The notes beneath the pieces were generated by a model, which saw only the letters and a program-made list of their open reading frames with translations, made no database searches and had not been told where the DNA came from. A DNA stretch of 64,000 bases from Gemmatimonadota bacterium. Lineage in GTDB: Bacteria > Gemmatimonadota > Gemmatimonadetes > JACCXV01 > JAHWKZ01. A program made the position numbers and the translations under genes. Shown here piece after piece: positions 2,992 to 54,945 of this stretch. The stretch's first letter is position 1; every line of letters starts with the position of its first letter. Location: NCBI GenBank assembly GCA_050732935.1, contig JBOHRW010000217.1, forward strand, positions 398 through 64,397, written 5' to 3'.

Positions 2992-3013
2992 GGCACACTC
3001 AGCTCAGGCGCGA

Positions 3014-35797: not shown

Positions 35798-35978
35798 GTG
35801 CGATAGGACCCGGGGGCAACCGCCAGGCCTGAGCCCTGTCACGAGTTCATGCGCTTGATCTGATGCGTTTGCAAAGTCAATGAGTTAGAGCTGCGATGAT
35901 ATGCAGCCGCCGTTGGCCCTTGTATGTGGATATACGGAACTAGATATCCTTAGTTAGACTGCGGAAGAGGAGGCTGAG

Positions 35979-36356
35979 ATGAGACGCTGGGTCGGTCGCT
36001 GGATCATCGGGGTCGGCATCATCCATGCTGGGGTCGGAGTCGTCATATTTCGAGAACGCCTGTTGGCGATCCTCCACGACGGTGTATGGAACGCCGTGGA
36101 CGGCCATCCTGGTCGACCGCTCGCGTTTTGGTTCGTATTCCTAGGTTTATTTACGATCGTGTTCGGGAGCCTCGTCGATTCGATGGAAAGCCGCGATCTT
36201 TCGCTTCCCCGCTTTGTGAGTTGGGCATTCTTCGTCTTGGTGGTTCTCGGAATCGTGACGATGCCCGTGGGCGGCGGATGGCTGCTCCTTCCGGCAGGGC
36301 TCGGTCTGGTCGTGCGTTCGTATCGACGAGGAACCAACGCCGCGCCCGCAGTCTAA
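35979..36356 (+). CDS. small hypothetical membrane protein (3-4 TM)
   Basis: GAGGAGG RBS. MRRWVGRWIIGVGIIHAGVGVVIF...LAFWFVFLGLFTIVFGSLV...WAFFVLVVLGIVTM. First gene of the low-GC island. Confidence 0.45.
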   Translation: MRRWVGRWIIGVGIIHAGVGVVIFRERLLAILHDGVWNAVDGHPGRPLAFWFVFLGLFTIVFGSLVDSMESRDLSLPRFVSWAFFVLVVLGIVTMPVGGGWLLLPAGLGLVVRSYRRGTNAAPAV

Positions 36357-36486
36357 CAACCGGTTGCAGCGGACGGTCCGCTCCGCGGCCCGCCGCTGAA
36401 CCGGAGCGTTAGGCCGATCAACTCCAAGGGTTGTCGGCTTCGCGCGATAGTTTCCTGCTTGGGCCTGAGATGCTAGGGGAGGGGAA

Positions 36487-37104
36487 GTGGCCGACAATCC
36501 GCCGTTCGTTACGGCCTACGGAAACATTACAAAGGCCCTGACCAAGATCCAGACAGCGGCTGTACCCCCTCGGTTTACGCAGGACTTCCTTGCCACAAAA
36601 CTGGACCTCAAAGGGGGATCGCCGAAACCGGTAATTCCTTTCCTTAAGCGGGTCGGGTTCTTGGGCACGGACGGGGTCCCTACCGAGTTGTACAAGCGGT
36701 TTCGGAACCCTAAGCAACGCGGACCGGCGGCGGCCGCCGCACTGAAGAAGGGGTACCGAACGCTTTACGAGATCAACGAGTACATCCACGAGGCGAAAGA
36801 TGATGAACTTAAGGGCGTCGTGGTTCAAATGACAGGTGGGGAGCCAGAGTCGAGCACCACAAAGGCAATCATCGGATCCTTCAAAGCGCTTCGGAAGTTC
36901 GCGGCCTTCGACGAGAACGAAGAGCCAGAAGAGCCGGAGGATGTTGAGGAGTCGGAAGAGGAATTGCCTGAAGGGCCCGATAACAAGATCACGACGACGA
37001 AACTTGGTTTGTCGTACGCGATCAATCTGAATCTTCCCGCAACCTCGGACGTAGCGGTGTTCGACGCAATCTTCAAGAGCCTGAAGGAGCACTTACTTAA
37101 GTGA
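36487..37104 (+). CDS. hypothetical protein, possibly DUF5343-like; upstream partner of a HEPN gene
   Basis: 205 aa. ...SPKPVIPFLKRVGFLGTDGVPTELYKRFRNPKQRGPAAAAALKKGYRTLYEIN resembles DUF5343 from memory (not verified). Acidic C-terminal tail. 4-nt GTGA overlap with the next gene. GC is about 52%, against about 69% for the flanks. Confidence 0.5.
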   Translation: MADNPPFVTAYGNITKALTKIQTAAVPPRFTQDFLATKLDLKGGSPKPVIPFLKRVGFLGTDGVPTELYKRFRNPKQRGPAAAAALKKGYRTLYEINEYIHEAKDDELKGVVVQMTGGEPESSTTKAIIGSFKALRKFAAFDENEEPEEPEDVEESEEELPEGPDNKITTTKLGLSYAINLNLPATSDVAVFDAIFKSLKEHLLK

Positions 37105-37700
37105 CCGATGACCACATGGCATTTCGTGACCGGCTCAAGCTCTTTGCAATGAACAATCAGTTACTTGAAAACGGCCTGGATGCGGTGGAGCAAGAGCATG
37201 CCATCGATCTCGGTCGAGGGCATCAGTGGACTGTGGGCCAGGACAAGGACTACTACCCACAACTTGACCAAGCGGTCCGCACGGAGGCGCGTGCAATGGC
37301 GCCGCACTACGAGATTTTCTACTCGCTCGAGAATTCGATTCGAAGTCTCATCTCGGAAACACTCGAAGTAGCCGAACCTGCGGGATGGTGGGAGAGCGGC
37401 CGCGTCCCGCCAACGATCAAAGCAGCCGCTGAGGAGACGCGAAGGCGAGAGATTGAATCTGGGATGACGCCACGGTCTGCAGAGCCCCTCGACTTCACGA
37501 CTTTCGGGCAGCTCGGGGAAATCATCAAAACCAACTGGGATGTCTTTGGGGGCATGTTCAACAGCCAGAGAGCCGTTGAGCGCGTAATGGCCAACTTGAA
37601 TACGCTTCGTGGTCCGATAGCTCACTGCAGCCCACTTGCTGAGGACGAAATCGTGAGGCTTCGTCTCAGTGTTCGAGACTGGTTCCGCTTAATGAGCTAA
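37101..37700 (+). CDS. HEPN-domain protein (Swt1-like HEPN, R-x4-H motif)
   Basis: C-terminal ...ANLNTLRGPIAHCSPLAEDEIVRLRLSVRDWFRL carries the R-x4-H HEPN signature followed by a conserved helix. 199 aa. Confidence 0.55.
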   Translation: MTDDHMAFRDRLKLFAMNNQLLENGLDAVEQEHAIDLGRGHQWTVGQDKDYYPQLDQAVRTEARAMAPHYEIFYSLENSIRSLISETLEVAEPAGWWESGRVPPTIKAAAEETRRREIESGMTPRSAEPLDFTTFGQLGEIIKTNWDVFGGMFNSQRAVERVMANLNTLRGPIAHCSPLAEDEIVRLRLSVRDWFRLMS

Positions 37701-37817
37701 TGGCCGGACGCTTACGGCCTAACTCGCTTCAGGAGCCGACCGAGGGCTCGCTGTCGCTCGGCACTCGGCGGGTCAGCAGCAAGATTCGTTGCGCCTTGCG
37801 ATCAGGAGGCACGTCGC

Positions 37818-39071
37818 ATGTTCAAGCTCGTCGATAGGCGCAAAGGCTACCTTTTCGCGAGCAGCGACCTACGCCAGATCATCGAGACTGCGCTCTCCAG
37901 AATGCATTTAGAGGTTGAAGGGCTTGAGGCCGATCGATTCTTGAACACGGCACCAGCAGATCTGGCCTCATACCTAGTCGAGAAGTCCACGATTACCGCA
38001 CCAGTCTTACTCCGAGAGCAGTGGACGGTCTCGGAGGCAGAGACAAAGGTAGACGTCCGCTACGACAGTCGCCGTTGGATCGATGACCGGTCTCGCCCAG
38101 TCTTGGTGCCCGGCCAACGGATTGAAATCGAGGTGCCCGTTGAAGGCTCCATCGACCTGTTGTATGCGCGGGCAAGCACCTTCAGTTCTTCCCCGCCGCG
38201 CGCTGAAATACGAGGGAACGCCGTCGTTCTTGTCTTTGAGATCCCACACGACAGTGGTGACCGAGACATCAAGCAACAGGCAGAGCGAACTCTAAATGAG
38301 ATCGAGCAACATCTCACCTGGATCCGGAACGATCTAGCGGGTTACAACTCCAGCCTTCCCGGCGCCGCCGACGCAGCCATCTCCGGCCGTCGGGAACGCC
38401 TCCTTGCGAATCGAGGTCGAGTCGCGGCTCTAGGCATCCCCCTTAAGCGACGCGAGAACGCCCCAGCTACGTATGCTCCACCAGAGGTGCGCCGCAAGGT
38501 ACTGTCTTCACCGCCACCTGCGAGTTCAGCGCCCTTCGCCCCGGAACCGGCGATGGACGGGCCCACCTACGAGCACATTCTGAACGTCATTCAGAACATG
38601 GCCCATGTTATGGAGCGCAGCCCAAGCGCGTTTCGGAATATGGCCGAGGAGGATATACGCCAGCACTTTCTGGTACAGCTCAACGGTCAGTTCGAAGGCA
38701 GCGCCACCGGAGAGACTTTCAACGTCTCAGGCAAGACAGACATTCTCCTGCGTGTGAACGGGCGCAACGTCTTTATCGGCGAATGCAAGTTCTGGAAGGG
38801 ACCGAAGCAATTCGGCGAGACTATCGGCCAACTGCTTTCCTATACCGCATGGCGCGACACAAAGACCGCGATTCTCGTCTTCAATCGGGACACCTCTCTC
38901 AGCACGGTCCTCGGCGGTGTTGACGCAGAGGTCAAGAAGCACGAGCAGTTCAAGCGGATCGTTCAATGGTCGCATGAGTCCGGATTCCGGTACGTGCTTC
39001 ATCAGACAAACGACTCCAACCGGGAACTGGTCTTGACCGTACTTGTGTTCGATGTGCCTAAGCCAGAGTAG
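37818..39071 (+). CDS. hypothetical protein with C-terminal PD-(D/E)xK (restriction-endonuclease-fold) nuclease-like domain
   Basis: 417 aa. C-terminus ...FNVSGKTDILLRVNGRNVFIGECKFWKGPKQF shows the D...(E)CK core triad spacing of PD-(D/E)xK nucleases. The N-terminal 300 aa is unrecognised. Confidence 0.5.
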   Translation: MFKLVDRRKGYLFASSDLRQIIETALSRMHLEVEGLEADRFLNTAPADLASYLVEKSTITAPVLLREQWTVSEAETKVDVRYDSRRWIDDRSRPVLVPGQRIEIEVPVEGSIDLLYARASTFSSSPPRAEIRGNAVVLVFEIPHDSGDRDIKQQAERTLNEIEQHLTWIRNDLAGYNSSLPGAADAAISGRRERLLANRGRVAALGIPLKRRENAPATYAPPEVRRKVLSSPPPASSAPFAPEPAMDGPTYEHILNVIQNMAHVMERSPSAFRNMAEEDIRQHFLVQLNGQFEGSATGETFNVSGKTDILLRVNGRNVFIGECKFWKGPKQFGETIGQLLSYTAWRDTKTAILVFNRDTSLSTVLGGVDAEVKKHEQFKRIVQWSHESGFRYVLHQTNDSNRELVLTVLVFDVPKPE

Positions 39072-39145
39072 TCTGAACCGAGCGAGGCCCTGATCCTAGT
39101 TAGAACGCCTCGTTTGCCGCAGGGGCGGGGCGACCGCAGAATGGG

Positions 39146-39772
39146 ATGAGGCAAGGCATGCAAAGGATCGAAATTGAGATTCCCGTTATTCGGCCTGGCG
39201 GAACGATGTTTCGGGTCGACAGCGACTGGCAGCACAACGCTGTAATCCAGACCTATCATCCCTCGTGGTACGTCTACGCCCACGCTTATCGCATGGGTGC
39301 CGATCGCCTAGTTGCCTCGGCCATGCAGGACCGCCGTGACATAGACTATCTCGTCTTCCCCATTGCTTTTATGTACCGGCAGTATCTCGAGCTTGGTCTA
39401 AAGGCGCTGATCCTTGATGCGGAGGAGTTGGCCAACACCTCATCGGCGGATCCCTACGGACACCGCCTGGACGTGCTATGGAACCGCTGCGAGCGGGCAT
39501 TGCTAAATCTGGAGAATCCACCATCTCTCGTGGAACGAGACGTGATCGGGAAATCTATCGATCAGTTCGGCACCATAGACGCGTCTTCGGTGGCGTTTCG
39601 GTATCCAGTTACGAAGGACGGTCATCCAGTACAACTCCCGACGACGCATATCAATCTCCGCGTACTCCGGGACGAGATGAAGAACGTCGGGAATGTCATC
39701 GAGTCCCTTTTGAACGGCCTGAGCGCCATGGTTGACCTAAAGCGTGAGTTCGAGGGTGAATGCGGGATGTAA
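39146..39772 (+). CDS. hypothetical protein (alpha-helical, about 190-208 aa)
   Basis: Clean ORF in the island, with an alternative start at MFRVDSD (39206). No recognisable family. Confidence 0.4.
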   Translation: MRQGMQRIEIEIPVIRPGGTMFRVDSDWQHNAVIQTYHPSWYVYAHAYRMGADRLVASAMQDRRDIDYLVFPIAFMYRQYLELGLKALILDAEELANTSSADPYGHRLDVLWNRCERALLNLENPPSLVERDVIGKSIDQFGTIDASSVAFRYPVTKDGHPVQLPTTHINLRVLRDEMKNVGNVIESLLNGLSAMVDLKREFEGECGM

Positions 39773-40151
39773 CCTCGCCGTTCAGACCGCGGCGGCCGCA
39801 TGCGGAGCCCGGTGTTCTAATGTGAGGAGGACGGACTCGAGTGCCCGTCCCTGTCGCGCGGGCAGAAAACTTGCTGCAACGGCCTCGAAGCAAGAAGGCT
39901 TCGAGCTCAGTGTTGAGGCGACACAAGGCGAACGAGACTCGAATCTCGTTGAAGGTCAGACTTTCCGCGGTCTCGACAATGTCACAGCAAGGGTGTCATA
40001 GAGGTCACGACCCGCCGTCTAACGAGTGAATGGACCTGACGGTGCGGCTGGCTCCTCAACCGGGAATGTTTGACATGGGGGAGGGCGTCGGTGATTTGAG
40101 AGGAACTCAGGTGGCCGCGCGGCAGGCGATTCGTGAATCCGTTAGGCGATC

Positions 40152-40850
40152 ATGGGAGAAGAGATGGCTCGTAGGAAGGTGACCGTCATTCCGAATCAGG
40201 TTTTTGTGGGCCTGCCCTGGCGAAACGTGCGCCCTCGGTACGAGAAGTGCATCGACAAGCTCGAGCAAAGGTACCCTCTGCATTTCACCATCGTGGGTCG
40301 AAAGGACGCACAGGACGCCGAGGACCTGCTCCAGGTCATCACCGCTCGTATCGACGCGTCGAGCTATGCTATCTTTGATGCCACTGGCGGGAATGCTAAC
40401 GTGTCGCTTGAGTACGGATACGCCGAAGCTGTAAACCTTCCGCGTGCCCTGTACCTCAGCACCCACAAGGCCGCCGGGGGAGGCAGCAGAGGTACGATCA
40501 TCTCTGATCTTGGCGGTAAGCGACGTGTGGAGTATAAGAATGAGCAGAGTCTTCGGACCCGCCTCGACACCTTCTGCAAGGATCACGATTACACGAAGCG
40601 CTTCGAATCCTTCTTGCAGAAGCGCGTCCGTCCGACGAAGCCCGGAGAGAAGAAGAGACAGCGGACGCTCGCACTGAAGTTGATACACCACCTGGACGAC
40701 AAAGCAAAATTACGACGAGCCGATATAGCGCAATCACTCCAAGCAAGTGGCTACTCCGAGAAGGAGATCTCCGATATGCTGACCAAATTGCACAAAGAAG
40801 GACTACTGAACGTAAGTCGCGGGCGGTTCTCGGACGTGCGGGTCGCGTAA
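40152..40850 (+). CDS. hypothetical protein: N-terminal nucleoside-2-deoxyribosyltransferase/SLOG(TIR-like) Rossmannoid domain + C-terminal winged-HTH
   Basis: KVTVIPNQVFVGLPWRN...SSYAIFDATGGNANVSLEYGYAEAVNLP resembles the D.T..N.NV..E.GyA motif of NDT/SLOG-like domains. C-terminus ...EKEISDMLTKLHKEGLLNVSRGRFSDVRV is wHTH-like. Confidence 0.5.
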   Translation: MGEEMARRKVTVIPNQVFVGLPWRNVRPRYEKCIDKLEQRYPLHFTIVGRKDAQDAEDLLQVITARIDASSYAIFDATGGNANVSLEYGYAEAVNLPRALYLSTHKAAGGGSRGTIISDLGGKRRVEYKNEQSLRTRLDTFCKDHDYTKRFESFLQKRVRPTKPGEKKRQRTLALKLIHHLDDKAKLRRADIAQSLQASGYSEKEISDMLTKLHKEGLLNVSRGRFSDVRVA

Positions 40851-40944
40851 CACGACCTACAGCGGATCGGCTACATTGGCCGTTAATCGCCGAACTGTTG
40901 GACACTACGCCAAATCCGAAATCCCCGCCGGGGACCAGGACCTC

Positions 40945-43050
40945 ATGAACCACAGCCAGATAGTCAGCTTCATCTGGGGTGTCGCGGATCTCATCCGCGA
41001 CACCTTCAAACGCGGCAAGTACCAGGACGTGATCCTCCCGCTCACCGTGCTGCGGCGGCTCGACTGCGTGCTGGCTCCCAACAAGTCGAAGGTCCTAGAG
41101 GTCCAGGCTAAGTACAAGGGCAAGATCGAGAACCTCGACCAGCTGCTCCGGCGCGCCTCGGGCTTCGCCTTCTACAACACCTCCCGCTACGACTTCGAGA
41201 AGCTCCTGGGCGACGCGCCGCACATCGCGCAGAACCTCCGCAACTACATCGCCAGCTTCAGCCCCAACATGCGGGAAGTACTTGAGAAATTCGACTTCAA
41301 CAACACCATCAGCAAGCTCGACGAGGCGGGACTGCTCTTCCTTGTCGTGCAGAAATTCGGCGAGGTGAATCTCCACCCGGACGTCATCGACAACCCGACG
41401 ATGGGCACCATCTTCGAGGAGCTGATCCGCAAGTTCAACGAGGCCTTGAACGAGAACCCGGGCGAGCACTTCACTCCTCGCGACGTGGTCCACCTGATGG
41501 TGGATCTTCTGATCGCAGGAGACGAGCAACGGCTACGCAAAAAGGGCGTGATCCTAACGGTATACGATCCGTGCTGCGGCTCGGGAGGGATGCTGACGAT
41601 CACGAAGGAGCACATCAAGGCAGGCGAGTGGTGCGGGCGAGACCTCCGGAAGCCGCCCGTAAACCCGGGGGCTGACGTCCATCTCTTCGGGCAGGAAGTG
41701 AACCCAGAGACCTGGGCGGTCAGCAAGTCCGATCTCTACATGAAATCGGTCGACGGCCGCGACGCGGAGAATATCGCGTACGGGAGCACCCTCTCGAACG
41801 ATCGTCATGCGGGCACGGCCTTCGACTACCTGATCGCCAACCCGCCCTACGGCAAGGACTGGAAACGCGACGAGGTCGCCGTACGGGCCGAGCATGAGCG
41901 GGGCGCCGCGGGACGCTTTGCCCCAGGGCTCCCACGGATCAGCGACGGCCAGCTCCTGTTCCTCCTGCACATGCTGGCGCACATGAAGGAGCCCAAGCAG
42001 GGCGGTTCGCGCGTCGCCATCATCATGAACGGCTCTCCGCTCTTCACCGGAGACGCCGGGAGCGGCGAGAGCGAGATCCGCCGCTGGATCCTCGAGAACG
42101 ACCGCCTCGAGGCGCTGATCGCGCTTCCCGAGCAGCTCTTCTACAACACGGGGATCGCCACGTATGTCTGGGTGCTCACCAACCGGAAGCCTCCCGAGCG
42201 GCGCGGCAAGGTCCAACTCATCGACGCCACCCGCTTCTGGACTTTGCTCCGAAAGAGCCTAGGGGCCAAACGGAGGGAGATCCCATTTGAGAAGAAGGAG
42301 GACATCCTCGCGCTGCTCCAGAACTTCGCGGACGGCGAGACCCGCAAGATCGCGGAGGACGGCGAGGAGCGCGAGCTCGTGGTGAGCCGGATCTATCGCA
42401 CGACCCACTTCGGCTTCCGCAAGATCACGGTCGAGCGACCGCTCAAGCTGGACTTCCAGGCGACGCCCGAACGGATCGCGCGACTCGATGAGGAACGCCC
42501 CTTCAAGAATCTCGCCGTCTCGCGCAAGAAAGGGGCGGCCAAGGCCAAGGAGGAGGAGGAAGGGCGCGCCCAGCAAGCCGCCATTCGCGAGCTCCTGGCG
42601 AACCTTCCGGGCGAACTCTACCTGGATCGAACCGAGTTCGAGGCGGTCCTCGGGAAGGCGGCCCGGAAGGCCAACCTGAAGCTCGCCGCTCCGATCAAGA
42701 GGACCATTCTCTCGGCACTCTCCGAGCGCAACGAGAGCGCCGAGATCTGCCGCGACAAGGACGGAAATCCGGAGTCCGACACTGAGCTTCGGGACACCGA
42801 GAGCGTTCCCCTCTCCGAGAGCGTTGAGGCCTTTTTCGAGCGCGAGGTAAGGCCCCACGTCCAGGACGCGTGGATCGACATCAGCCGGCGCGACCCGCAG
42901 GACGGAGAAGTCGGCATCGTGGGTTACGAGATCAACTTTAACCGCTACTTCTACGAGTACCGCCCACCGCGGTCGCTGGAGGAGATCGAGGCCGACATCC
43001 AGCACGTGGAGAGAGAGATCGTCTCGATGCTGCGGGAGGTCGCGGGGTAG
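40945..43050 (+). CDS. hsdM: type I restriction-modification system, DNA methyltransferase subunit M (long form)
   Basis: HsdM N-terminal domain, FTPRDVVHLMVDLL, VYDPCCGSGGML, LIANPPYGKDW (NPPY). Confidence 0.9.
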   Translation: MNHSQIVSFIWGVADLIRDTFKRGKYQDVILPLTVLRRLDCVLAPNKSKVLEVQAKYKGKIENLDQLLRRASGFAFYNTSRYDFEKLLGDAPHIAQNLRNYIASFSPNMREVLEKFDFNNTISKLDEAGLLFLVVQKFGEVNLHPDVIDNPTMGTIFEELIRKFNEALNENPGEHFTPRDVVHLMVDLLIAGDEQRLRKKGVILTVYDPCCGSGGMLTITKEHIKAGEWCGRDLRKPPVNPGADVHLFGQEVNPETWAVSKSDLYMKSVDGRDAENIAYGSTLSNDRHAGTAFDYLIANPPYGKDWKRDEVAVRAEHERGAAGRFAPGLPRISDGQLLFLLHMLAHMKEPKQGGSRVAIIMNGSPLFTGDAGSGESEIRRWILENDRLEALIALPEQLFYNTGIATYVWVLTNRKPPERRGKVQLIDATRFWTLLRKSLGAKRREIPFEKKEDILALLQNFADGETRKIAEDGEERELVVSRIYRTTHFGFRKITVERPLKLDFQATPERIARLDEERPFKNLAVSRKKGAAKAKEEEEGRAQQAAIRELLANLPGELYLDRTEFEAVLGKAARKANLKLAAPIKRTILSALSERNESAEICRDKDGNPESDTELRDTESVPLSESVEAFFEREVRPHVQDAWIDISRRDPQDGEVGIVGYEINFNRYFYEYRPPRSLEEIEADIQHVEREIVSMLREVAG

Positions 43051-43177
43051 CTCGTACCGAAACCTCTGCACCACCAGCGCCGGTGTCTGCGTGTGTTCCC
43101 CCTCCACGGGTCCGTGCCAGTGGACACAAAATGTAGGGGATTGCGCCTAACCCCCGACGCTTTGTATCATCCACCCC

Positions 43178-43774
43178 GTGAACAAGCGGGATCAAGCCCT
43201 GGCGATCATCGAGGAAAGGGGCCTCGTCCGCCCAAAAGAGCTCGAGGCCCGGGGTGTGTCGCGCGCGCTGCTCTATCGTCTGGTTCGCGAGGGGCTCGTC
43301 GAGAGGCAGACGCGGGGCGTGTACGCTCTGGCGCGCCACACACCTACAGCGGAGCATACACTAGCGCAGGTGGCGAAGCGCGTTCCGGCGGGCGTGTTCT
43401 GCCTACTCACCGCTCTACGCTTCCACGGCCTCACCACCCAGGCGCCCGCCGAGGTGTGGATCGCGCTACCCGAGAAGGCGCGGATCCCCCGACTCGACTA
43501 CCCCCGGCTGCGGGTCGCGCGCTTCTCGGGGGCCTCGCTCACGGAAGGGGTCGAGACGCACCAGGTCGAGGGCGTCGAGGTGCGCGTCTACTCGCCGGCG
43601 AAGACCGTGGCCGACTGTTTCAAGTACCGCAAGAAGATCGGCATCGATGTGGCCGTCGAGGCGCTTCGCGACTTCACCCGACTGTATCGCGGGGGCGCGA
43701 CCGATCTGGCTCGGTTCGCTCGCATCTGCCGGGTCACCCGCGTGATGCAGCCCTACCTGGACGCCATCGCATGA
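43178..43774 (+). CDS. abiEi: AbiEi-family antitoxin (type IV TA, N-terminal wHTH)
   Basis: GTG start. MNKRDQALAIIEERGLVRPKELEARGVSRALLYRLVREGLVERQTRGVYAL is an AbiEi_4-like N-terminus. 4-nt ATGA overlap with the following NTase gene. Confidence 0.75.
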   Translation: MNKRDQALAIIEERGLVRPKELEARGVSRALLYRLVREGLVERQTRGVYALARHTPTAEHTLAQVAKRVPAGVFCLLTALRFHGLTTQAPAEVWIALPEKARIPRLDYPRLRVARFSGASLTEGVETHQVEGVEVRVYSPAKTVADCFKYRKKIGIDVAVEALRDFTRLYRGGATDLARFARICRVTRVMQPYLDAIA

Positions 43775-44724
43775 ATCCCACCAAGCGGAACATCGCCGCT
43801 TCGGTCGCTGCGCGCCTGCTCAACGAGGCCCGACGTACTGGTGACGATTACCAGACCCTGCTCACAGCGTACGCGTTCGAGCGGTTCCTGTACCGCTTGG
43901 GCCTCTGCGAACTGCGCGATCGTTTCGTGCTCAAGGGCGCCATGCTCCTCCGCCTGTGGTCGGACAATCCGTACCGTGCAACCCGCGACCTGGACCTCCT
44001 GCGGACAGGCGACGGATCGTTTGATGCCATCCGGGCAGACCTCCGGACCATCTGCACGGTTCCGGTGGACCCCGACGGCATCGCCTTCGAAGTCGATTCC
44101 ATTCGTGTCGAGGCTATTCGGGCCGAGGACGAGTTTGCCGGTACCCGCGCGACGCTGCTTGCGCGTTGTGGCTCCGCGCGCTTGTCCCTGCAGGTGGACA
44201 TGGGCCTCGGCGATGCCGTTTGGCCGCCTCCCCAGCCCATCGTCTATCCCTCGCTGCTCGACTTTCCGGCACCCGAGGTGCTTGCGTACCCGCGCGAGGC
44301 GGTCGTGGCGGAGAAGCTGGAGGCGCTGGTGGTCCTCGGCGACCGCAACAGCCGGATCAAGGATTTCTTCGACCTGCACCACCTCGCGAACCACTTCGCC
44401 TTCGATCGAGGGACGTTGGCCGATGCTGTGCGTCGAACCTTTGCCAGACGCGCCACACCCATTCCGGCCGAAGCGCCGATTGGTCTCACTCGCGCATACT
44501 GGGAGAACCCCTCACGCCCAGCTCAGGTGCGCGCCTTCGCTCGGCGTTCAGGTCTAGAGATACCGGAGGACCCCGGTCACGAGCTGGCAGACCTCGTCGG
44601 CGCGTTCCTCCTGCCGATACTGGACGATCTCCGACGGGGCGCCGAGGAGACTGGATCGTGGGCTGCCGGGGGACCCTGGCGGCTGATCACGCATGCCAGG
44701 CAAGAAAGCCAAGCCGATGTCTGA
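43771..44724 (+). CDS. abiEii: AbiEii/AbiGii-family nucleotidyltransferase toxin (DUF1814)
   Basis: FVLKGAMLLRLWSDNPYRATRDLDLL (NTase motif of DUF1814). 318 aa. Lies directly after abiEi. Confidence 0.75.
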   Translation: MNPTKRNIAASVAARLLNEARRTGDDYQTLLTAYAFERFLYRLGLCELRDRFVLKGAMLLRLWSDNPYRATRDLDLLRTGDGSFDAIRADLRTICTVPVDPDGIAFEVDSIRVEAIRAEDEFAGTRATLLARCGSARLSLQVDMGLGDAVWPPPQPIVYPSLLDFPAPEVLAYPREAVVAEKLEALVVLGDRNSRIKDFFDLHHLANHFAFDRGTLADAVRRTFARRATPIPAEAPIGLTRAYWENPSRPAQVRAFARRSGLEIPEDPGHELADLVGAFLLPILDDLRRGAEETGSWAAGGPWRLITHARQESQADV

Positions 44725-46054
44725 GGCGCTCGCGCAGATCAGGGGGGCGCGACCCCGGCGCTACCGTCCGTACACGAGGTGCAAAGATTCCGGCGTCGAT
44801 TGGCTTGGGCAGATCCCGGTGCATTGGGAAGTGAAGCGGCTCAAGTTTATTGCGCCAGCAACCATGGGTAAGGTAGACGTCAAGCCGGATGACGCGGTCT
44901 ATATCGGCCTCGAGCATGTCGAGTCATGGACGGGTCGCCTGCTACTCGATAACCAACCCGATGTCGTAGACAGCGTCGTGACATCGTTCAAGGCAGGCGA
45001 CGTGCTCTTCGGTAAACTTCGTCCCTATCTGGCTAAGGCGGCTCGACCAGACTTTGACGGAGTCTGTACAAGCGAGATTCTACCGCTTCGGCCGGCAGCC
45101 CGGTGCTCTCAAAGCTACTTGATGTACTGCCTTCTGAGTGCACCGCACATTCGGTTCCTCGACTCCCTTACCTATGGCACCAAGATGCCGCGACTCAGCC
45201 CCGCGCAGATCGGAAACAGCTTCGTGCCAGTTCCCCCCCTTGAGGAGCAGCACGCTGTTGCCGGTATCCTCGACCGCGAAACATCTAGGATCGACGGGCT
45301 CGTGGCGAGGAAGGAGCGGCTGATCGAGCTGCTCCAGGAGAAGCGGACTGCCCTCATCACCCACGCCGTCACCCGCGGCCTCGACCCGAGCGTCCAGCTT
45401 ATGGACTCCGGCATTGAGTGGGTGGGGGAGATTCCGGAGCATTGGGAGGTAAGCCGCATCAAATGGGTTGCTCGGATGGAAAGCGGGCATACACCGGACA
45501 AGAAGATCGAAGCTTACTGGCGTGATGGAGATGTGCCGTGGCTCTCACTCAATGACACTGGATTCCTGAAGGATCACGACTACATATCTGAGACGGCTCA
45601 CTATACGAATGAGCTGGGGCTGAGGAATTCCTCCGCGCGCCTCCTTCCTGCGGGAGCCGTAGTCTTCTCGCGCGACGCAACGATCGGACTGTGCGCGATT
45701 ACTGAACGGCCAATCGCGGTATCGCAGCACTTTATTGCCTGGCTATGCGGGGGGAGGCTTCTGCCGGAGTACCTGCTGCGAGTCTTTGATGCAATGCAGG
45801 GTGAGCTTGAGAGGCTAACGATGGGCGCGACTCTACGAACGATTGGAATGCCTCATGTAAAGGAGCTAGCAACTCCAATCCCGCCCGTGTCAGAGCAAGA
45901 GCAGATCGTCGCTGTCATCCGCACCGAAACCGCCAAGATCGATGCCCTCATCGTCAAGGTCCGCAAAGCCATCGACCTTCTCAAGGAGTTCCGCACCGCC
46001 CTGATTTCCGCAGCCGTCACAGGCAAGATCGACGTCCGCGATGGGGTACCGTGA
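44693..46054 (+). CDS. hsdS: type I restriction-modification system specificity subunit S (two target-recognition domains)
   Basis: Two TRD halves, each followed by a conserved coiled-coil region ([39 protein letters not shown]...; [38 protein letters not shown]). Confidence 0.85.
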
Positions 46055-47097
46055 CCTTCTCCCCGCGCTTCTCGATCTCCAACGCCAGCGCCGAAGCGCT
46101 GACGCAAATCGAGCGGGCGCGGGGGTTTCTCGAGGCAGCGAGGCTCTCGGAGGATTGGCTCGCCTCCATGCGCTCGCGCGCCTTCGTCCTCGAAGCTCAC
46201 CACACGACCCACATCGAGGGGACCCGGCTGACCCTCGAGCAGTCCGAGCAGCTCCTCGCGGGCCATGAGGTGCCGGAAACCGATCCAGAGGATGCGCGCG
46301 AGCTCCTCAACTACCGTGAGGCCTTCGAGTTCGTGAGCGACTGGCTCAAGGATGGCGAGGCCATCACGGAGGGTCTGATCCGAGAGATCCACAGACGTCT
46401 TGTCGCCGGCGTACGTGGGGGGTCGGCGGCTCCCGGAGAGTATCGCCGCGTGCAGAACTACATCGTGAACATGGCCGCGGGCGAGACGGTCTACGAGCCG
46501 CCTCCCGCCCACGACGTACCGATCCTGATGCGGGAGCTGGTCACCTGGCTGAACGATCCGGGTCAGGTCCACCCGGTGCTTGCCAGCGGGATGGCGCAGT
46601 TCCAGCTCGTCCACATCCATCCGTTCCTCGATGGAAATGGCCGGACTTCGCGGCTCCTCTCCACGATCTGTCTCTATCGAAGCGGCTACGACTTCAAACG
46701 GCTCTTCACGATCAGCGAGTACTACGACCGCGATCGCGCCGCGTTCTATCGCGCTCTCCAGGGCGTGCGAGAGGCCGGCATGGATCTGACAGGCTGGCTC
46801 GACTTCTATACCCAGGGGCAGGCCACGCAGCTCGACGAGGTCAAGGCGCTTGGCGAGCGTGCGATTCGGCGGGACGTGCTCGTCCGCGAGCATGGGCTCT
46901 CGGAGCGCCAAGGGCTAGCCCTTGGGCACGTGATGGAGAACGGGTCGCTGACGATCAAGGACTACGAGGCGCTCTGTCCGGGCGTCAGCCGGCGTACTTT
47001 GCAGAGAGATTTGAAAGGGCTTGTGCAACGGGCTCTCTTGAAGACCAAGGGCGCCACAGACCGTCTTCAATACGTTGGAGGCAAGTCACTTACGTGA
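46051..47097 (+). CDS. fic: Fic/DOC-family protein (AMPylator-like)
   Basis: [16 protein letters not shown] (HPFx[D/E]GNGR). GTGA overlap with the hsdS stop. Confidence 0.85.
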
Positions 47098-47155
47098 ACT
47101 TGCGACAAACTTGCGGCAGAACTTGCGACAGACTCGCGACGGGACTTGCGACATG
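47098..47155 (+). repeat. tandem direct repeat array, five copies of ACTTGCGACA with 11-12 bp period, filling the fic-hsdR intergenic space and ending on the hsdR ATG
   Basis: acttgcgacaa / acttgcggcaga / acttgcgacag / actcgcgacggg / acttgcgacATG. Confidence 0.7.
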
Positions 47156-50100
47156 ACCCAAAGAGTCTCAGAGCGCGCCTTTGAGGAGGCGATCGAGTGC
47201 GCCCTCCTCGAGCACGGGCCCGACGCCTGTCCAGGCGACGCCACGGCGGTCCGGGAGCCACCGCCGACCTTCGACGGCGATCCTCTGCCGGGGGGCTACC
47301 GGAAGCAAAGGCCCGAGTACTACGACCGCGCGCTCTGCCTGATCACGAAGGACGTGATCGACTTCCTCCTGGCCACCCAGCCGAAAGAGTGGGAGAGGCT
47401 CCGCCAGCATCACGGTTCGGAGGTTAAGGACCGCTTTCTGTCGCGCCTCTCGCGCGAGATCGGCCGGCGGGGCGCGCTCGATGTTCTGCGGAACGGCGTC
47501 AAGGACTCGGGCTGCAAGTTCCGCCTGGCGTTCTTCCGCCCAGCGAGCGGCCTGAACGAGGAGACGCGGCGGCTCTACGCCGCCAACCTCTTCTCGATCG
47601 TCCGTCAGCTCCGCTACAGCGAGCGGGGAGAACCGAGCCTCGACCTCGTGCTCTTCCTGAACGGGATCCCCCTCTTCACGGCCGAGCTCAAGAACCCGCT
47701 GTCGGGCCAGGACGTCGAGGACGCGATCCGGCAGTACCGGACCGATCGCGACCCGCGCGAGCCGCTCTTCGCCTACGGCCGCTGCCTCGCCCACTTCGCG
47801 GTGGATCCGGAGCTGGTCTTCGTGACCACCCATCTCCGGGGATCCGCGACCCGCTTCCTGCCCTTCAACCAGGGGCGCTTCGGCGGCGCCGGAAATCCCC
47901 CCGTGCCGCCGACACGAAAAGGGTACGCGACCGCGTACCTCTGGGAGCGGACCTGGGCGCGTGACAGCGTCCTCGACCTCGTCCGCCAGTTCATCCACGA
48001 GGTCGAGGAGGAGGACAAGCGCTCGCTGATCTTCCCGCGCTACCAGCAGCTGGACTGCGTCCGTCGGCTCGTGCGTCACGCCCGGAATCACGGCACCGGG
48101 CAGCGCTACCTGATCCAGCACTCGGCCGGGAGCGGGAAGAGCTTCACGATCGCCTGGCTCGCTCACCAGCTCTCGACCCTCCACGACGCCGAGGACCGGC
48201 GCGTCTTCGACTCGATCGTGGTGGTGACGGACCGCCTGGTCCTCGACCGCCAGCTCCAGCGGACGGTGCGCCAGTTCGAGCAGACCCTGGGGGTGGTCGA
48301 GAACATCGACCAGACCTCGCGCCAGCTCAAGGAGGCCCTGGAGTCGGGCCGGACGATCATCGTGACGACACTACAGAAGTTCCCGGTGATCGCCGAGCAG
48401 ATCGAGCAGCTCCGGGGCCAGCGCTTCGCAGTGGTCCTGGACGAGGCGCACTCCTCGCAGACTGGGGAGAGCTCGAAGAGCCTGAAGCAGGCGCTGACCG
48501 CCGGCAGCCTCGAGGAGGCGGAAGCGGAGGAGGCCGGTGCCGGGACGCCCGAGGAGGAGATCGAGGACGCGGTTCACGAGGAGATCCGAAGGCGCGGGCC
48601 CCAGCCCAACCTCTCGACCTTCGCGTTCACGGCGACCCCCAAGCCGAAGACCCTGGAGCTCTTCGGCCGCAAGCGCCCGGACGGGCAGTTCGAGCCCTTC
48701 CATCTCTACTCGATGCGTCAGGCCATCGAGGAGGGCTTCATTCTGGACGTCCTCGCGAACTACACCACCTATAAGACCTATTGGCGGCTCCTCAAGAAGA
48801 TCGAGGACGACCCCCGCTACGACCGGCGGAAGGCCCAGTACCTGCTCAAGTCGTTCGTCGACCTCCATCCCCACGCCATCCAGGAGAAGATCCGCATCAT
48901 GGTGGATCATTTCGCCGGAAAGGTGCAGGGGGAGATCAGCGGGAGGGCCAAGGCGATGATCGTGACGCGGTCTCGGCTCCACGCGGTTCGCTACAAGCGG
49001 GCGCTGGACCGCTATCTGAAGGAGAAGGGCCACATGTGGAAGAGCCTGGTGGCGTTCTCGGGGACGGTCGAGGACGGGGGGAAGAGATACACGGAATCGG
49101 GCATGAACTCCGCCGGCGAGGATCACGTGATCGGCGAGCGCCAGACGGCCCTCGAGTTCGGAAAACCCGAGTGCCGGTTCCTGGTGGTCGCTAACAAGTT
49201 CCAGACGGGCTTCGACCAGCCGCTCCTCCACACGATGTACGTGGACAAGAAGCTGGGCGGGGTGAACGCGGTCCAGACCCTCTCGCGCCTCAACCGGACG
49301 CACCCGGGCAAGACGGGCACCATGGTGCTCGACGTCGCCAACGAGGCCGAGGAGATCCGGAAGGCCTTCGAGCCGTACTACGAGACGACGCTGCTGTCCG
49401 AGGAGACGGATCCGAACCTGCTCTACGAGGTCCAGGGGCGGCTCCTGGGGTTCGGCGTGTACACCGAGGTCGATGTCGCGGCGTTTGCGCGGGTGTACTT
49501 CGACTCTAAGACCACCCAGGACCAGATCTACGCGGCGCTGGAGTCGATCCGCGAGCGGTTCGGAGAGATCACCCCGGAGGAACAGGCCGGCTTCTGGGGC
49601 CAGGTCACCGACTACGTCCGGCTCTACGCCTTTCTTTCCCAGGTCCTGACCTTCGCCGACCCTGACCTCGAGAAGCTCTACGTCTTCGCCCGTTATCTCC
49701 GGCGGCTCCTGCCGGCCGACCCTGAGGAACTCCCCCGTGAGGTGCAGCAGAACATCGACATGGAGTCCTACCGCATCCAGGAGATGAGCCGCGGCAGGAT
49801 CAAGCTCGAACGCCAGGCCGGGAAGCTGGGTCCCATGCGCAGCAAGCCGGGCCACGGGCGCGGGGAGGAAGAACTCGAGCCCCTTTCCCAGATCATCGCC
49901 GAGCTGAACGAGCGGTTTGGGCTGAACCTCGGGCCCGAGCACCGCATCGCCCTGGAGCGGATTCGCGATGCTCTTGACGAGGACGCCGGCCTCGACGCCA
50001 GTGCGCGGGTCAACACGCGGGAGAACGTGCGTCTCACGTTCGACCCCAAGGTCGAAGACAAGATCCAGGAGATCGTCGACACCAACTTCGAGCTCTACAA

Positions 50101-50719
50101 GCGGATCACCGACGACCAGGCCTTCGGCCGGGCGCTCAAGAACCTCCTCTTCGACGACTACATCCGCCGCCATCGTCGTGTGGAGGAGTTGCTGAAGCTC
50201 CAGGAGTCCAAGACGCTGGAGTTCAAGTCGAGCCTGCGCTGGAACCTGAAGGAGGACTGCAAGGACGACCGCCACGTCACCCACGCGGCCCTCAAGACGA
50301 TCGCCGCCTTTCTGAACACTGAGGGCGGTGACCTCGTGATCGGTGTGGCCGATGACCGCACCGTCGTTGGCATCGAGCCCGACCGGCTCGAGAACGACGA
50401 CAAGTTCATGCGCCACCTGGCCCAGGTGGTCAGGAACGGTCTCGGGGTTCGCGCCGGGACCTGCATCGATCCCAAGACTCAGATCGTGGATGGGAAGACG
50501 GTCTGCCTGGTGAGCTGTCAGCGGAGCCCGGAGCCTGTATTCCTGAAGTGGAAGGGGCTGGAGAAGTCCAAGAGCGGGGACCTCTTCGTGCGCAGCGGCC
50601 CCAGCACAATCCCGCTGGAAGGCGATGACGTCGAGGAGTTCATCACTACGAGATTTCGTGCGACGGTCGGGCCAGGCGCAGGGATAGCACCAGTTGACGA
50701 ACCTCGGACACCAGCATAG
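47153..50719 (+). CDS. hsdR: type I restriction enzyme R subunit with C-terminal AlbA_2 (Schlafen-like) domain
   Basis: HsdR N-terminal nuclease and SF2 helicase motifs (QHSAGSGKSFT, DEAHSSQ, ...). The C-terminal 170 aa, ESKTLEFKSSL...HAALKTIAAFLNTEGGDLVIGVADDRTVVGI, matches the AlbA_2 core. Confidence 0.9.
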   Translation: MTQRVSERAFEEAIECALLEHGPDACPGDATAVREPPPTFDGDPLPGGYRKQRPEYYDRALCLITKDVIDFLLATQPKEWERLRQHHGSEVKDRFLSRLSREIGRRGALDVLRNGVKDSGCKFRLAFFRPASGLNEETRRLYAANLFSIVRQLRYSERGEPSLDLVLFLNGIPLFTAELKNPLSGQDVEDAIRQYRTDRDPREPLFAYGRCLAHFAVDPELVFVTTHLRGSATRFLPFNQGRFGGAGNPPVPPTRKGYATAYLWERTWARDSVLDLVRQFIHEVEEEDKRSLIFPRYQQLDCVRRLVRHARNHGTGQRYLIQHSAGSGKSFTIAWLAHQLSTLHDAEDRRVFDSIVVVTDRLVLDRQLQRTVRQFEQTLGVVENIDQTSRQLKEALESGRTIIVTTLQKFPVIAEQIEQLRGQRFAVVLDEAHSSQTGESSKSLKQALTAGSLEEAEAEEAGAGTPEEEIEDAVHEEIRRRGPQPNLSTFAFTATPKPKTLELFGRKRPDGQFEPFHLYSMRQAIEEGFILDVLANYTTYKTYWRLLKKIEDDPRYDRRKAQYLLKSFVDLHPHAIQEKIRIMVDHFAGKVQGEISGRAKAMIVTRSRLHAVRYKRALDRYLKEKGHMWKSLVAFSGTVEDGGKRYTESGMNSAGEDHVIGERQTALEFGKPECRFLVVANKFQTGFDQPLLHTMYVDKKLGGVNAVQTLSRLNRTHPGKTGTMVLDVANEAEEIRKAFEPYYETTLLSEETDPNLLYEVQGRLLGFGVYTEVDVAAFARVYFDSKTTQDQIYAALESIRERFGEITPEEQAGFWGQVTDYVRLYAFLSQVLTFADPDLEKLYVFARYLRRLLPADPEELPREVQQNIDMESYRIQEMSRGRIKLERQAGKLGPMRSKPGHGRGEEELEPLSQIIAELNERFGLNLGPEHRIALERIRDALDEDAGLDASARVNTRENVRLTFDPKVEDKIQEIVDTNFELYKRITDDQAFGRALKNLLFDDYIRRHRRVEELLKLQESKTLEFKSSLRWNLKEDCKDDRHVTHAALKTIAAFLNTEGGDLVIGVADDRTVVGIEPDRLENDDKFMRHLAQVVRNGLGVRAGTCIDPKTQIVDGKTVCLVSCQRSPEPVFLKWKGLEKSKSGDLFVRSGPSTIPLEGDDVEEFITTRFRATVGPGAGIAPVDEPRTPA

Positions 50720-50728
50720 ACGGAGAGA

Positions 50729-51415
50729 ATGCCAAAACTACGCAGTCTCGAAGCCATCTTCCGAGAGCTCAACGCTGAAGGGATCCGCTACCTGGTGGCC
50801 GGGGGAGTCGCCGTCAACGTCCACGGCTATCAGCGAATGACACAGGACCTTGATCTCATCGTGGATCTCGCACGGGAGAACGTGCTGGGTGCCCTAAGGG
50901 CGCTTGGAAAGCTGGGGTACCGGCCGGTGTTACCGGTCGAGGCGGAGGATTTCGCGGATCCCGCAAAGCGGCGAGCTTGGGTGGAAACGAAGAATCTGCA
51001 GGTCTTCTCGCTGACCAGCGAGGAGCACCAGGACACGACCGTCGACCTGTTTGCAGGCGATCCCTTCTCAGGTCGGGACGAGTACGCCCGCGCCGTCCTG
51101 GTGGAGATTGCTCCTGCCCTCGAGGTGCCCTTCGTGCACTTGGCCACCCTCATCGCCATGAAGGAGGGGACGGGACGCGCCAGAGATTCGGATGACGTCG
51201 AGCACCTTCGTGAAATCCAGACGGATTTGGAAGCTGGACCGGACAGGGTCAGGGAGACGGGGGGCTGGGTAGCCGCCACCTGGGGGGGAAGCCGCCGCGA
51301 GCAACTGCGGAGAGCGCTTCGGCTGAGTGCATCCGAGCGGCTCGAGGGGCTGGAGGCCCTGACGGAGACGAGCGAGCGGCTGAAAGGAATCGCCAGGCCG
51401 GATGGCGGCCCATGA
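50729..51415 (+). CDS. minimal nucleotidyltransferase-fold protein, paralog c
   Basis: IRYLVAGGVAVNVHGYQRMTQDLDLIVD. 228 aa. Begins 10 nt after hsdR stop. 14-nt overlap with the downstream deaminase gene. Confidence 0.55.
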   Translation: MPKLRSLEAIFRELNAEGIRYLVAGGVAVNVHGYQRMTQDLDLIVDLARENVLGALRALGKLGYRPVLPVEAEDFADPAKRRAWVETKNLQVFSLTSEEHQDTTVDLFAGDPFSGRDEYARAVLVEIAPALEVPFVHLATLIAMKEGTGRARDSDDVEHLREIQTDLEAGPDRVRETGGWVAATWGGSRREQLRRALRLSASERLEGLEALTETSERLKGIARPDGGP

Positions 51416-54763: not shown

Positions 54764-54945
54764 GGCGTTTACCTCCGTCCGGGTGAAGGCCGTGCGTCCG
54801 TGGGGGAGCGTCTCGACTCGAGCGGAGTCATTCTAACACGCGGGCCATAAACCGTGCCGGCGGGAACCGTGTTTTTCTCGGACGGGACGTTAGAATCGAT
54901 GCATAGCTTCCCGCTCACCTGGATGTGTCTCGTCGGGGAGGTATC

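Follow-up and report, generated by a model that had tools for sequence, protein, structure and literature searches.

HEPN nucleases encoded beside a small partner are known from HEPN-MNT toxin-antitoxin pairs and from type IX retrons, and in one of the latter, Retron-Kva2, the winged-helix (WH) protein alone mitigates the toxicity of the HEPN RNase, an enzyme that works through an H/R site without an Rx4-6H motif (bioRxiv 10.64898/2026.07.14.738597). Effectors of type II retrons carry NDT-like and DNA-binding domains (PMC7736814, Table 1), and defence by Retron-Eco1 proceeds by NAD+ hydrolysis (PMC12405507). The PDC sets of PADLOC comprise 145 phage-defence candidates, for which embedding in defence loci is the basis of the catalogue; PDC-M34 and PDC-S54 come from the underlying guilt-by-embedding survey by Payne et al. 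(bioRxiv 10.1101/2024.01.29.577857). Here we compare these systems with a segment (35798-40944) of a 64-kb stretch of Gemmatimonadota DNA, referred to as the window, in which five genes lie immediately upstream of a type I restriction-modification (R-M) operon.

A low-GC segment between mqnE and a type I R-M operon

The GC content across 35798-40944 was 0.574 (z = -8.9 versus 5.1-kb windows outside 30-53 kb; mean 0.684, sd 0.012), and the lowest-GC 5.1-kb window of the whole 64 kb begins at 35801, essentially where the original prediction had placed the start of a GC drop. The drop itself is real; the range of 52-58% given for it is not matched by the per-gene values of 0.55-0.60. GC3 was 0.635-0.684 in the segment's genes, as compared to 0.87-0.92 in the ubiD-like gene, mqnE, hsdM and hsdR. 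Because of this z-score and the GC3 gap to neighbouring core genes, the segment is foreign DNA, part of a bacterial defence island and gained by horizontal transfer. Its borders are not marked by a tRNA, by flanking repeats or by any Rfam match.

Five co-directional genes had been predicted, and the NCBI and Logan gene calls agree on five plus-strand genes at 36487-37104, 37101-37700, 37818-39071, 39146-39772 and 40164-40850, here called gA to gE. For gD, the start at 39146 was used, while NCBI places it at 39158 and one Logan call at 39206. Searches of the PDB found no sequence relative of any of the five proteins. The segment also contains a sixth low-GC3 gene (35979-36356, plus strand; GC3 0.667, a foreign codon composition), left out of the predicted five, which encodes a small membrane protein of 125 aa (Pfam DUF6463, 1.4e-30; named "DUF6463 family protein" by NCBI).

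The left flank is mqnE (TIGR03700, 5.6e-136). To the right, on the plus strand, lies the type I R-M operon (40945-50719), delineated by Pfam and PADLOC matches and by the gene calls of an independent Logan assembly (L144), and consisting of hsdM (40945-43050), AbiEi (43178-43774), AbiEii (43771-44724), hsdS (44693-46054), SoFic (46051-47097) and hsdR (47153-50719). The expectation of a foreign island beside a type I R-M/AbiE locus was therefore borne out, with both AbiE and SoFic embedded in the R-M operon itself.

The gA-gB pair and gC

The first two genes form a close pair whose reading frames share 4 nt. gA (36487-37104, plus strand, 205 aa) encodes a DUF5343 protein (Pfam DUF5343, 1.7e-42) that matches PDC-M34A (PADLOC, 4.7e-48), and gB (37101-37700, plus strand, 199 aa) a Swt1-like HEPN protein (Pfam HEPN_Swt1, 1e-10) that matches PDC-M34B (PADLOC, 5.4e-35). 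Both models are matched over their full length, and gene order and orientation are those of the PADLOC candidate PDC-M34 (cassette CAS_00130, FAM_01148>>FAM_01657); here, the pair sits beside the type I R-M operon and not inside it. None of the paper texts searched mentions PDC-M34. The predicted HEPN protein with an Rx4H motif was confirmed, since gB scored 42.3 bits against HEPN_Swt1 (gathering cutoff, 27.5) and R170 and H175, within LNTLRGPIAHC, were invariant across 41 sequences. Linkage of the two genes is strict: of 80 gB loci, five are cut by a contig end, and the remaining 75, all the informative ones, have gA immediately before gB; in 52 loci, the gB start is projected to lie -20 to +7 nt from the gA stop. 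In the alignment of gA, the N-terminal domain is conserved, the linker after it is acidic and variable, and a C-terminal peptide of ~35 aa is invariant. Neighbours of M34 relatives include AbiE, DISARM, type IIG R-M, Fic, NYN and TIR genes.

We infer that gB is an RNase effector or toxin with an intact Rx4H site and gA its partner or antitoxin. PDC-M34 may thus be a translationally coupled pair in which gA keeps the gB RNase inactive via the invariant C-terminal peptide until infection, whereupon the freed RNase would cleave RNA and stop growth (abortive infection). With overlapping genes for a HEPN nuclease and its small partner, gA-gB resembles HEPN-MNT toxin-antitoxin pairs and the HEPN and WH effectors of type IX retrons; however, it is devoid of an MNT nucleotidyltransferase, a reverse transcriptase (RT) or an ncRNA. 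In addition, the partner comes first in gA-gB, whereas the HEPN gene comes first in the type IX retron, and the partner is classed as DUF5343 here and as a winged helix in the retron.

gC (37818-39071, plus strand, 417 aa) matched the PADLOC single-gene candidate PDC-S54 end to end (residues 9-415; 1.2e-155) and had no Pfam or NCBIfam match. The original prediction held that none of the genes belonged to a nameable system, but three of the five match PADLOC candidates (PDC-M34A, PDC-M34B and PDC-S54); gA-gB and gC are already catalogued, and the suggestion of undescribed modules holds for gD and gE, which are not. The family of gC numbers at least 5679 relatives, and alignment showed C-terminal invariants (E277/E278, D308, E322-C-K324 and Q338) that make up a D...ExK...Q signature. 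The PD-(D/E)xK-like C-terminus that had been predicted is thus present as a motif, although profile matches were not significant: Mrr_cat and HSDR_N matches were weak and confined to a few relatives, and hhalign of gC against the window's own HsdR nuclease motif aligned the D...ExK residues with E = 0.038. By its motif, the C-terminal domain is a predicted PD-(D/E)xK nuclease and gC a predicted DNase, in which the N-terminal ~240 aa may gate or target the nuclease. With an N-terminal region of unassigned role ahead of its C-terminal D...ExK core, gC resembles the single-gene PD-(D/E)xK nucleases of defence whose N-terminal domains vary (Shedu SduA and Mrr-type type IV restriction enzymes), but it gave no significant PADLOC match besides PDC-S54 and none to Pfam Mrr_cat. 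As with PDC-S54, gC is a single gene whose defence neighbours differ from locus to locus; the D...ExK...Q signature is read here from the alignment. Genes near its relatives include HsdR+EAD1, PLDc_2/SocA, MmeI-type MTase, HNH and McrBC-like genes, an 84%-identical relative adjoins VapBC and STAND genes, and plasmids (23) and viral contigs (8) also carry members of the family.

The uncatalogued genes gD and gE

gD (39146-39772, plus strand, 208 aa) is a solo protein whose family has no entry in Pfam, NCBIfam or PADLOC. The original prediction left it without interpretation; its predicted structure is a confident HEPN fold, which would make it the second, non-canonical HEPN-fold protein of the segment. 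Although gD has no Rx4-6H motif, R58, H86, D125 and R132 (numbered from the start at 39206) are invariant, and the Retron-Kva2 HEPN protein, too, has a widely spaced conserved His and Arg (H64/R122) in place of Rx4-6H. gD may therefore be an RNase with a non-canonical H...R site; unlike the Retron-Kva2 protein, it has no partner. Members of its family lie on 20 viral contigs amid phage structural genes and methylases, and the best-scoring relative from the first search is surrounded by Ymh, Rce1-like and HigB genes.

gE (40164-40850, plus strand, 228 aa) is likewise a solo protein of an uncatalogued family. Its predicted structure begins with an NDT/TIR-like domain of flavodoxin fold, in which the motif FDATGGNxNVSLEYGYAE is invariant, and ends in a winged helix. 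The predicted SLOG/NDT-like Rossmannoid domain with wHTH was accordingly right as to the NDT/TIR-like and winged-helix parts, while neither a SLOG structure nor a retron effector was among the fold matches listed (MilB, DNPH1, NDT and TIR). These matches indicate a probable resemblance to the N-glycosidases MilB, DNPH1/Rcl and NDT and to TIR NADases (TIR-STING, SPARTA TIR-APAZ and bacterial TIR), in a model that has low confidence (pLDDT <50) over precisely the stretches that contain the invariant motifs (residues 76-91 and 102-118). Sequence searches gave no significant match to the Pfam NDT or TIR families, and only weak TIR and CARF models in PADLOC (CARF-wHTH, 0.008-0.012). Since D72 and E83, acidic residues of an NDT/TIR-type motif, do not vary across 42 sequences that are 55-92% identical to gE, gE is probably catalytic, and it may degrade NAD+ or (deoxy)nucleotides in response to a nucleic-acid cue recognised by the winged helix. 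An N-terminal NDT-like and a C-terminal DNA-binding domain are also the layout of type II-A retron effectors (Retron-Eco1/Ec86 and Retron-Sen2); however, no RT or msr/msd adjoins gE in the window, and none appeared among the neighbour families listed for 24 loci of gE relatives.

Upstream of gE is a non-coding gap of 391 nt (39773-40163) with no credible ORF, no Rfam match and a fold z of -0.82. Direct reading of the gap revealed TTGACA-N16-TGATTT, while a consensus promoter scan found nothing; the gap probably holds gE's own promoter. Neighbourhoods of gE relatives are mixed, with housekeeping genes and a small number of phage, transposase and defence genes, and viral contigs and plasmids gave no match to the family. 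The association of gE with defence rests mainly on this single island.

Four modules rather than one system

The likely explanation, taken as a whole, is that four separately mobile modules (gA-gB, gC, gD and gE) make up a mosaic in front of the type I R-M operon, and that the segment is the latest-acquired part of a ~16-kb defence island (35.8-52 kb). This island would have been inserted after the menaquinone genes (ubiD-like and mqnE) of a Gemmatimonadota genome, its youngest part being the four self-contained modules set before the R-M operon. The modules are independent of one another. Recurrence of the five-gene set near hsdM had been proposed as a test, but among the relatives examined (80 gB loci, 25 gE loci, the nearest gC relative and the gD relatives) the five were never found together, and the other modules and hsdMSR were never nearby. 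tblastn found no window protein besides gA in the 80 gB loci and no other window protein in the 25 gE loci, and gE relatives of 92% and 83% identity sit elsewhere; most gB contigs are only 1-8 kb, so that failure to find R-M or other modules on them is weak evidence.

A single cooperating five-gene defence system would fit genes that are co-directional, tightly packed and equally low in GC3, but this reading is exceedingly improbable and already largely refuted: co-occurrence was found nowhere, the gB loci (n = 80) had gA alone as partner, the closest gC and gE relatives and the best-scoring first-search gD relative lie in unrelated contexts, and the units are 74-391 nt apart, with overlap between gA and gB only. 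There is just as slight a chance that the low-GC block arose by chimeric assembly, as might happen in a contig derived from a MAG, or is a set of housekeeping genes of odd composition. The order gC-gD-gE-hsdM-AbiE-hsdS-Fic-hsdR is repeated in the independent Logan assembly, hsdS and the DUF6463 gene are also low in GC3 between otherwise host-like flanks, and Pfam and NCBIfam placed none of the five proteins in a housekeeping family.

The function of the modules admits two further alternatives. They could be selfish cargo of toxin-antitoxin or addiction type, which keeps the island stable but brings no benefit against phage; in particular, gA-gB would then be a plain type II pair, and gD an orphaned relic resembling a toxin. 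The small upstream partner, the 4-nt overlap and the HEPN toxin do give gA-gB such a layout, and relatives' neighbourhoods are rich in VapBC, HigB and RelE modules; nevertheless we consider this unlikely, since toxin-antitoxin function and abortive-infection defence are not mutually exclusive, defence by partner-held HEPN toxins is known from the type IX retron (bioRxiv 10.64898/2026.07.14.738597), and relatives of gC and M34 lie within or beside R-M, DISARM and McrBC-like loci. Still less probable is that gE acts not as an effector but as a transcription factor that senses a ligand through its Rossmannoid domain, carries a wHTH in the way of Csa3 or a C-protein, and controls the downstream type I R-M operon. 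Its position 94 nt upstream of hsdM, its C-terminal wHTH and the weak CARF-wHTH matches noted above would suit a regulator, but no type I R-M system was near the 25 relative loci or near the relatives of 92% and 83% identity, enzymes head the fold matches, and the invariant D72/E83 point to catalysis.

With the mosaic of modules as the preferred reading, the effectors would be of toxin type, namely RNases, a DNase and a nucleotide or NAD+ glycosidase; we infer these biochemical activities, all triggers and the anti-phage role itself. The locus is of an ordinary kind, and what it offers is two fresh candidates, gD and gE.

Composition and surroundings of the low-GC segment

The segment at 35798-40944, between mqnE and hsdM, has a GC content of 0.574, against a mean of 0.684 (sd 0.012) in 5.1-kb windows outside 30-53 kb (z = -8.9), and the lowest GC among all 5.1-kb windows of the 64 kb is found in the one that starts at 35801; the low-GC island of the original prediction was thus borne out. 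GC3 was 0.87-0.92 in the ubiD-like gene, mqnE, hsdM, and hsdR and 0.635-0.684 in the DUF6463 gene and the five plus-strand genes of the segment, here called gA to gE from left to right. Since the GC3 of the segment is far below that of hsdM and hsdR, it was acquired more recently than the adjoining restriction-modification (R-M) core. The GC3 of hsdS (44693-46054) is 0.689, vs. 0.87-0.90 in hsdM and hsdR, which is consistent with a later replacement of the specificity subunit, and GC is back at background near 52 kb. Directly after mqnE lies a gene for a small membrane protein (DUF6463; 35979-36356; GC3 0.667) and, since its GC3 is foreign, the island begins with this gene and not with gA. At the island borders we found no tRNA, no integrase among the genes scanned, and no att-like repeats, flanking direct or inverted repeats being not above chance. 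No Rfam family matched in 35-52 kb, and a consensus scan gave no sigma-70-like sites and terminator-like sites no commoner than chance. The genes gA-gE agree with the NCBI calls for the contig, which belongs to a Gemmatimonadota MAG (proteins MGH7558892-96), and an independent Logan assembly gives the same genes from gC onward.

The left flank consists of menaquinone genes, a UbiD-like gene followed by mqnE (TIGR03700, 5.6e-136). The right flank is a type I R-M operon of hsdM, AbiEi/AbiEii, hsdS, SoFic, and hsdR, in which the only genes between the hsd genes are two embedded systems, AbiEi/AbiEii and SoFic. HsdR (47153-50719, with an ORF from 47075) has the HSDR_N, helicase, and T1R_D3 domains usual for this subunit and, at its C-terminus, an additional Schlafen AlbA_2 domain (PF04326, 7.6e-19, residues 1044-1181). 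The right island edge holds genes for a 228-aa nucleotidyltransferase with a weak AbiEii/NTP_transf_5-like match (50729-51415) and a 182-aa protein of cytidine/dCMP-deaminase fold (51402-51950; MafB19-like, 8.4e-15); their reading frames overlap by 14 nt, their GC3 is intermediate (0.74-0.77), and the pair may constitute a further module. The deaminase scores only 56 bits vs. a TadA cutoff of 150 and matches an anti-phage dCTP deaminase model at 2e-5. Serpins are not known to be common in bacteria, and a gene for a full-length serpin (54925-56157; Pfam Serpin, 1e-105) is located ~3 kb past the island.

Catalogued defence candidates: gA-gB and gC

The original prediction held that no gene of the segment belonged to a nameable defence system; in fact, three of the five match PADLOC candidates, gA and gB as PDC-M34A and PDC-M34B and gC as PDC-S54. 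The PDC catalogue lists 145 "phage defence candidates," all of them untested, that were recognized through the embedding of their genes in BREX, DISARM, or type I R-M loci; PDC-M34 is its cassette CAS_00130 (bioRxiv 10.1101/2024.01.29.577857). According to a later survey, the majority of PDCs still await validation. Embedding was the criterion of PDC discovery; gA-gE lie upstream of hsdM and are not embedded among the hsd genes. Our search of the literature text found no mention of PDC-M34, PDC-S54, or DUF5343, and no paper joining Swt1, HEPN, and anti-phage.

The product of gA (36487-37104) matches Pfam DUF5343 (1.7e-42) and PDC-M34A (4.7e-48, residues 1-203 of 205), and gB (37101-37700) matches PDC-M34B (5.4e-35, residues 10-197 of 199) and Pfam HEPN_Swt1 (42.3 bits vs. 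a gathering cutoff of 27.5, residues 73-198). The two genes overlap by 4 nt in the window and show the arrangement catalogued for PDC-M34, i.e., adjacent, co-directional, A then B. A metagenome scan with gB yielded 253 relatives. In the 80 loci retrieved, gA lay directly upstream of gB in 75 and the remaining five are truncated within 205 nt of a contig edge, so the order was the same in all 75 informative loci. In 52 loci the gB start lay -20 to +7 nt from the gA stop, overlapping or abutting, and all-against-all clustering of neighbours revealed no conserved third gene. Elsewhere the pair adjoins AbiE, DISARM, type IIG R-M, Fic, NYN, and TIR genes, an integrase, and an IS element, and housekeeping genes too. 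The Rx4H motif of gB (R170-GPIA-H175) was invariant in 41 sequences. In gA, a variable acidic linker separates the conserved N-terminal domain from a C-terminal peptide of ~35 residues that is invariant. We infer that gA and gB form a toxin-antitoxin-like abortive-infection pair, in which gB would be the predicted RNase and gA would restrain it, most plausibly via the C-terminal peptide. As a precedent, the HEPN nuclease of the type IX retron is restrained by a protein partner, the WH protein being sufficient by itself to mitigate its toxicity (bioRxiv 10.64898/2026.07.14.738597). On a reading of its sequence, DUF5343 might itself contain a winged helix.

The third catalogued gene, gC (37818-39071), matches PDC-S54 end to end (1.2e-155, residues 9-415 vs. 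model positions 4-408 of 410) and has no Pfam or NCBIfam match. Its family comprises at least 5679 proteins and is well conserved; relatives occur on eight viral contigs and on plasmids of Thauera, Rhizobium, Streptomyces, and haloarchaea, where their annotation is always "hypothetical." Among 36 sequences, the C-terminal 170 residues contained invariant E277/E278, D308 (GKTDILLR), E322-C-K324 (FIxECKFW), and Q338, the motif layout of a PD-(D/E)xK nuclease. Comparisons with known nucleases gave faint signals: matches to Mrr_cat were weak (3 of 36 relatives, best 0.03), as were those to HSDR_N (2 of 36, 0.046), and hhalign against the nuclease domain of the window's HsdR aligned the D and ExK residues at E = 0.038 with a probability of only 1.35%. 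The gC profile matched no PDB sequence. Relatives of gC occur beside HsdR and an EAD1 protein, beside PLDc_2 and SocA, and beside a SNF2/MmeI-type methylase/HNH block followed by McrBC-like genes. The neighbours of an 84%-identical relative are VapBC and a STAND NTPase, and no other gene of the window occurs there. As a working model, gC would act as a single-gene DNase gated or targeted by its N-terminal ~240 residues.

Two uncatalogued families: gD and gE

No match to gD (39146-39772) was found in Pfam, NCBIfam, or PADLOC. Its start most probably lies at 39146 or 39158: the residues upstream of the ATG at 39206 (IPVIRPGGTMF) can be aligned with the N-terminal sequence conserved among homologues. 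An indexed k-mer search returned only four relatives; an exhaustive search returned 2651 representative clusters (1014 at E<=1e-10), which excludes the possibility that gD is nearly unique. The predicted fold is a four-helix up-down HEPN, and 8 of 64 aligned relatives touch Pfam HEPN. The family contains no Rx4-6H motif; the invariant residues, numbered from the ATG at 39206, are instead R58, H86, D125, and R132, the last within FRYP. The HEPN protein of the type IX retron likewise lacks Rx4-6H and has distant catalytic His and Arg residues that meet at the dimer interface (bioRxiv 10.64898/2026.07.14.738597); gD resembles it in its conserved His and Arg, and by analogy H86 and R132 may be equivalent. 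Some gD relatives sit among Ymh, Rce1-like, and HigB genes, and others, on prophage-like contigs, have structural genes and methylases as neighbours; none was found in isolated phage genomes. Neither HEPN gene of the segment has the adjacent MNT nucleotidyltransferase of HEPN-MNT toxin-antitoxin systems: the partner of gB is DUF5343, and all-against-all clustering of neighbours revealed no conserved partner of gD relatives.

The last gene, gE (40164-40850), belongs to a family of at least 748 relatives, most of ~228 residues and 55-92% identical among the matches listed, so far known solely from uncultured bacteria of soil and groundwater, which belong to many phyla. The 22 GTDB species representatives that carry it are all MAGs and include Acidobacteriota, Verrucomicrobiota, Gemmatimonadota, Proteobacteria, and others; no relatives were found on viral contigs or plasmids. 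It has no Pfam domain, is absent from NCBIfam, and has no PADLOC match beyond weak TIR and CARF models. The motifs NQ.F.GLPW, GR.D, and FD.T.G..NVSLE.GYAE are invariant. The structural model (pLDDT 78; < 50 at residues 76-91 and 102-118) comprises a flavodoxin-like domain (residues 9-123) and a C-terminal winged helix (wHTH; 162-227), and Foldseek matched it to MilB (3.3e-4), DNPH1 (17-19% identity), SPARTA TIR-APAZ, TIR-STING, and NDTs. The N-domain of this predicted model matches the NDT/DNPH1/MilB N-glycosidase superfamily in fold; the isolated domain had no Pfam NDT match even at E<=10. As for TIR, SPARTA TIR-APAZ and TIR-STING are among the fold matches and the PADLOC TIR matches are weak. 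Upstream, the 391-nt gap between gD and gE (39773-40163) has no credible ORF and contains several short hairpins (e.g., CTCGAAGC-AAGAAG-GCTTCGAG); it has no Rfam match, and its predicted folding is no stronger than that of shuffled sequences (z = -0.82). A promoter-like TTGACA-N16-TGATTT occurs ~85 nt before the gE start.

The effectors of type II-A retrons also consist of an N-terminal NDT-like and a C-terminal DNA-binding domain (PMC7736814, Table 1), and defence by Retron-Eco1 operates through NAD+ hydrolysis (PMC12405507). Although gE shares this architecture, its neighbours in the window are gD and hsdM, with no adjacent reverse transcriptase (RT) or msr/msd ncRNA, and no retron RT occurred in lists of up to 25 neighbour families from 24 gE loci; with no RT or ncRNA alongside, membership of a retron was rejected. 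A role as controller of the R-M operon was considered unlikely, and no type I R-M system was found near gE relatives in 25 loci. With low confidence, we propose that gE would be an N-glycosidase acting on NAD+ or nucleotides under the control of nucleic-acid binding by the winged helix. All-against-all clustering identified no conserved neighbour of gE; neighbour families include phage terminase, portal, IS110, methylases, MADS, AriA, and DRT, and also citrate synthase, EPSP synthase, and PhaC, and the 92%- and 83%-identical relatives lie in other contexts. Two gE homologues of 88% identity are each preceded, at a distance of 137 nt, by a co-directional gene for a 625-aa protein without a Pfam domain (L005, 583-2460; L006, 7987-9864), and no such gene was found beside other gE relatives. 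In an Acidobacteriaceae locus (L023), an MqnE/CofH-like radical SAM gene (3011-3997; 34% identical to the window's mqnE) is situated ~6 kb upstream of the gE homologue, which is probably a coincidence.

A mosaic island and its implications

The original prediction suggested a test of whether the five-gene set co-occurs next to hsdM in other genomes. We searched 25 gE, 80 gB, and 3 gD loci by tblastn with every protein of the window and found no co-occurrence beyond gA-gB. The locus represents a defence island of the usual mosaic type rather than a new five-gene system. The domain assignments of the original prediction were largely right, with HEPN in gB, a PD-(D/E)xK motif in gC, and NDT-like plus winged helix in gE; the SLOG alternative for gE was not upheld, there being no SLOG member among the matches listed in either fold list. 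A PDB sequence search with profiles of all five families gave nothing significant.

With gA, gB, and gC already catalogued as candidates, what is new are gD and gE: a non-canonical solo HEPN family of ~2650 representative clusters and a retron-less NDT/TIR-like plus winged-helix family. A defence role for the two families is suggested by their context here and by analogy. A joint reading, which we offer tentatively and consider rather unlikely to hold, is that the gE family is a new stand-alone immune effector and the gD family a new solo HEPN RNase using an H...R site. In that reading, gE would resemble retron effectors and consist of an NDT/TIR-fold N-glycosidase with a Z-alpha/MCM-like winged helix fused to it; it would respond directly to a nucleic-acid cue, needing neither reverse transcriptase nor msDNA, and its activity would deplete NAD+ or (modified) nucleotides.

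No concept is altered by this locus, since islands beside R-M systems are expected to be rich in HEPN, PD-(D/E)xK, and TIR-like genes. It is a natural instance of two catalogued PADLOC candidates, with specific predicted catalytic residues, and adds two families present in no defence catalogue. To our knowledge, Gemmatimonadota have hardly been studied for phage defence; if the predictions hold, these 5 kb would supply four separately clonable anti-phage candidates from this phylum. The most useful of these is gE which, if the proposal is true, would indicate that the type II retron effector architecture can work without a retron and would extend the range of single-gene effectors by a nucleotide or NAD+ glycosidase.
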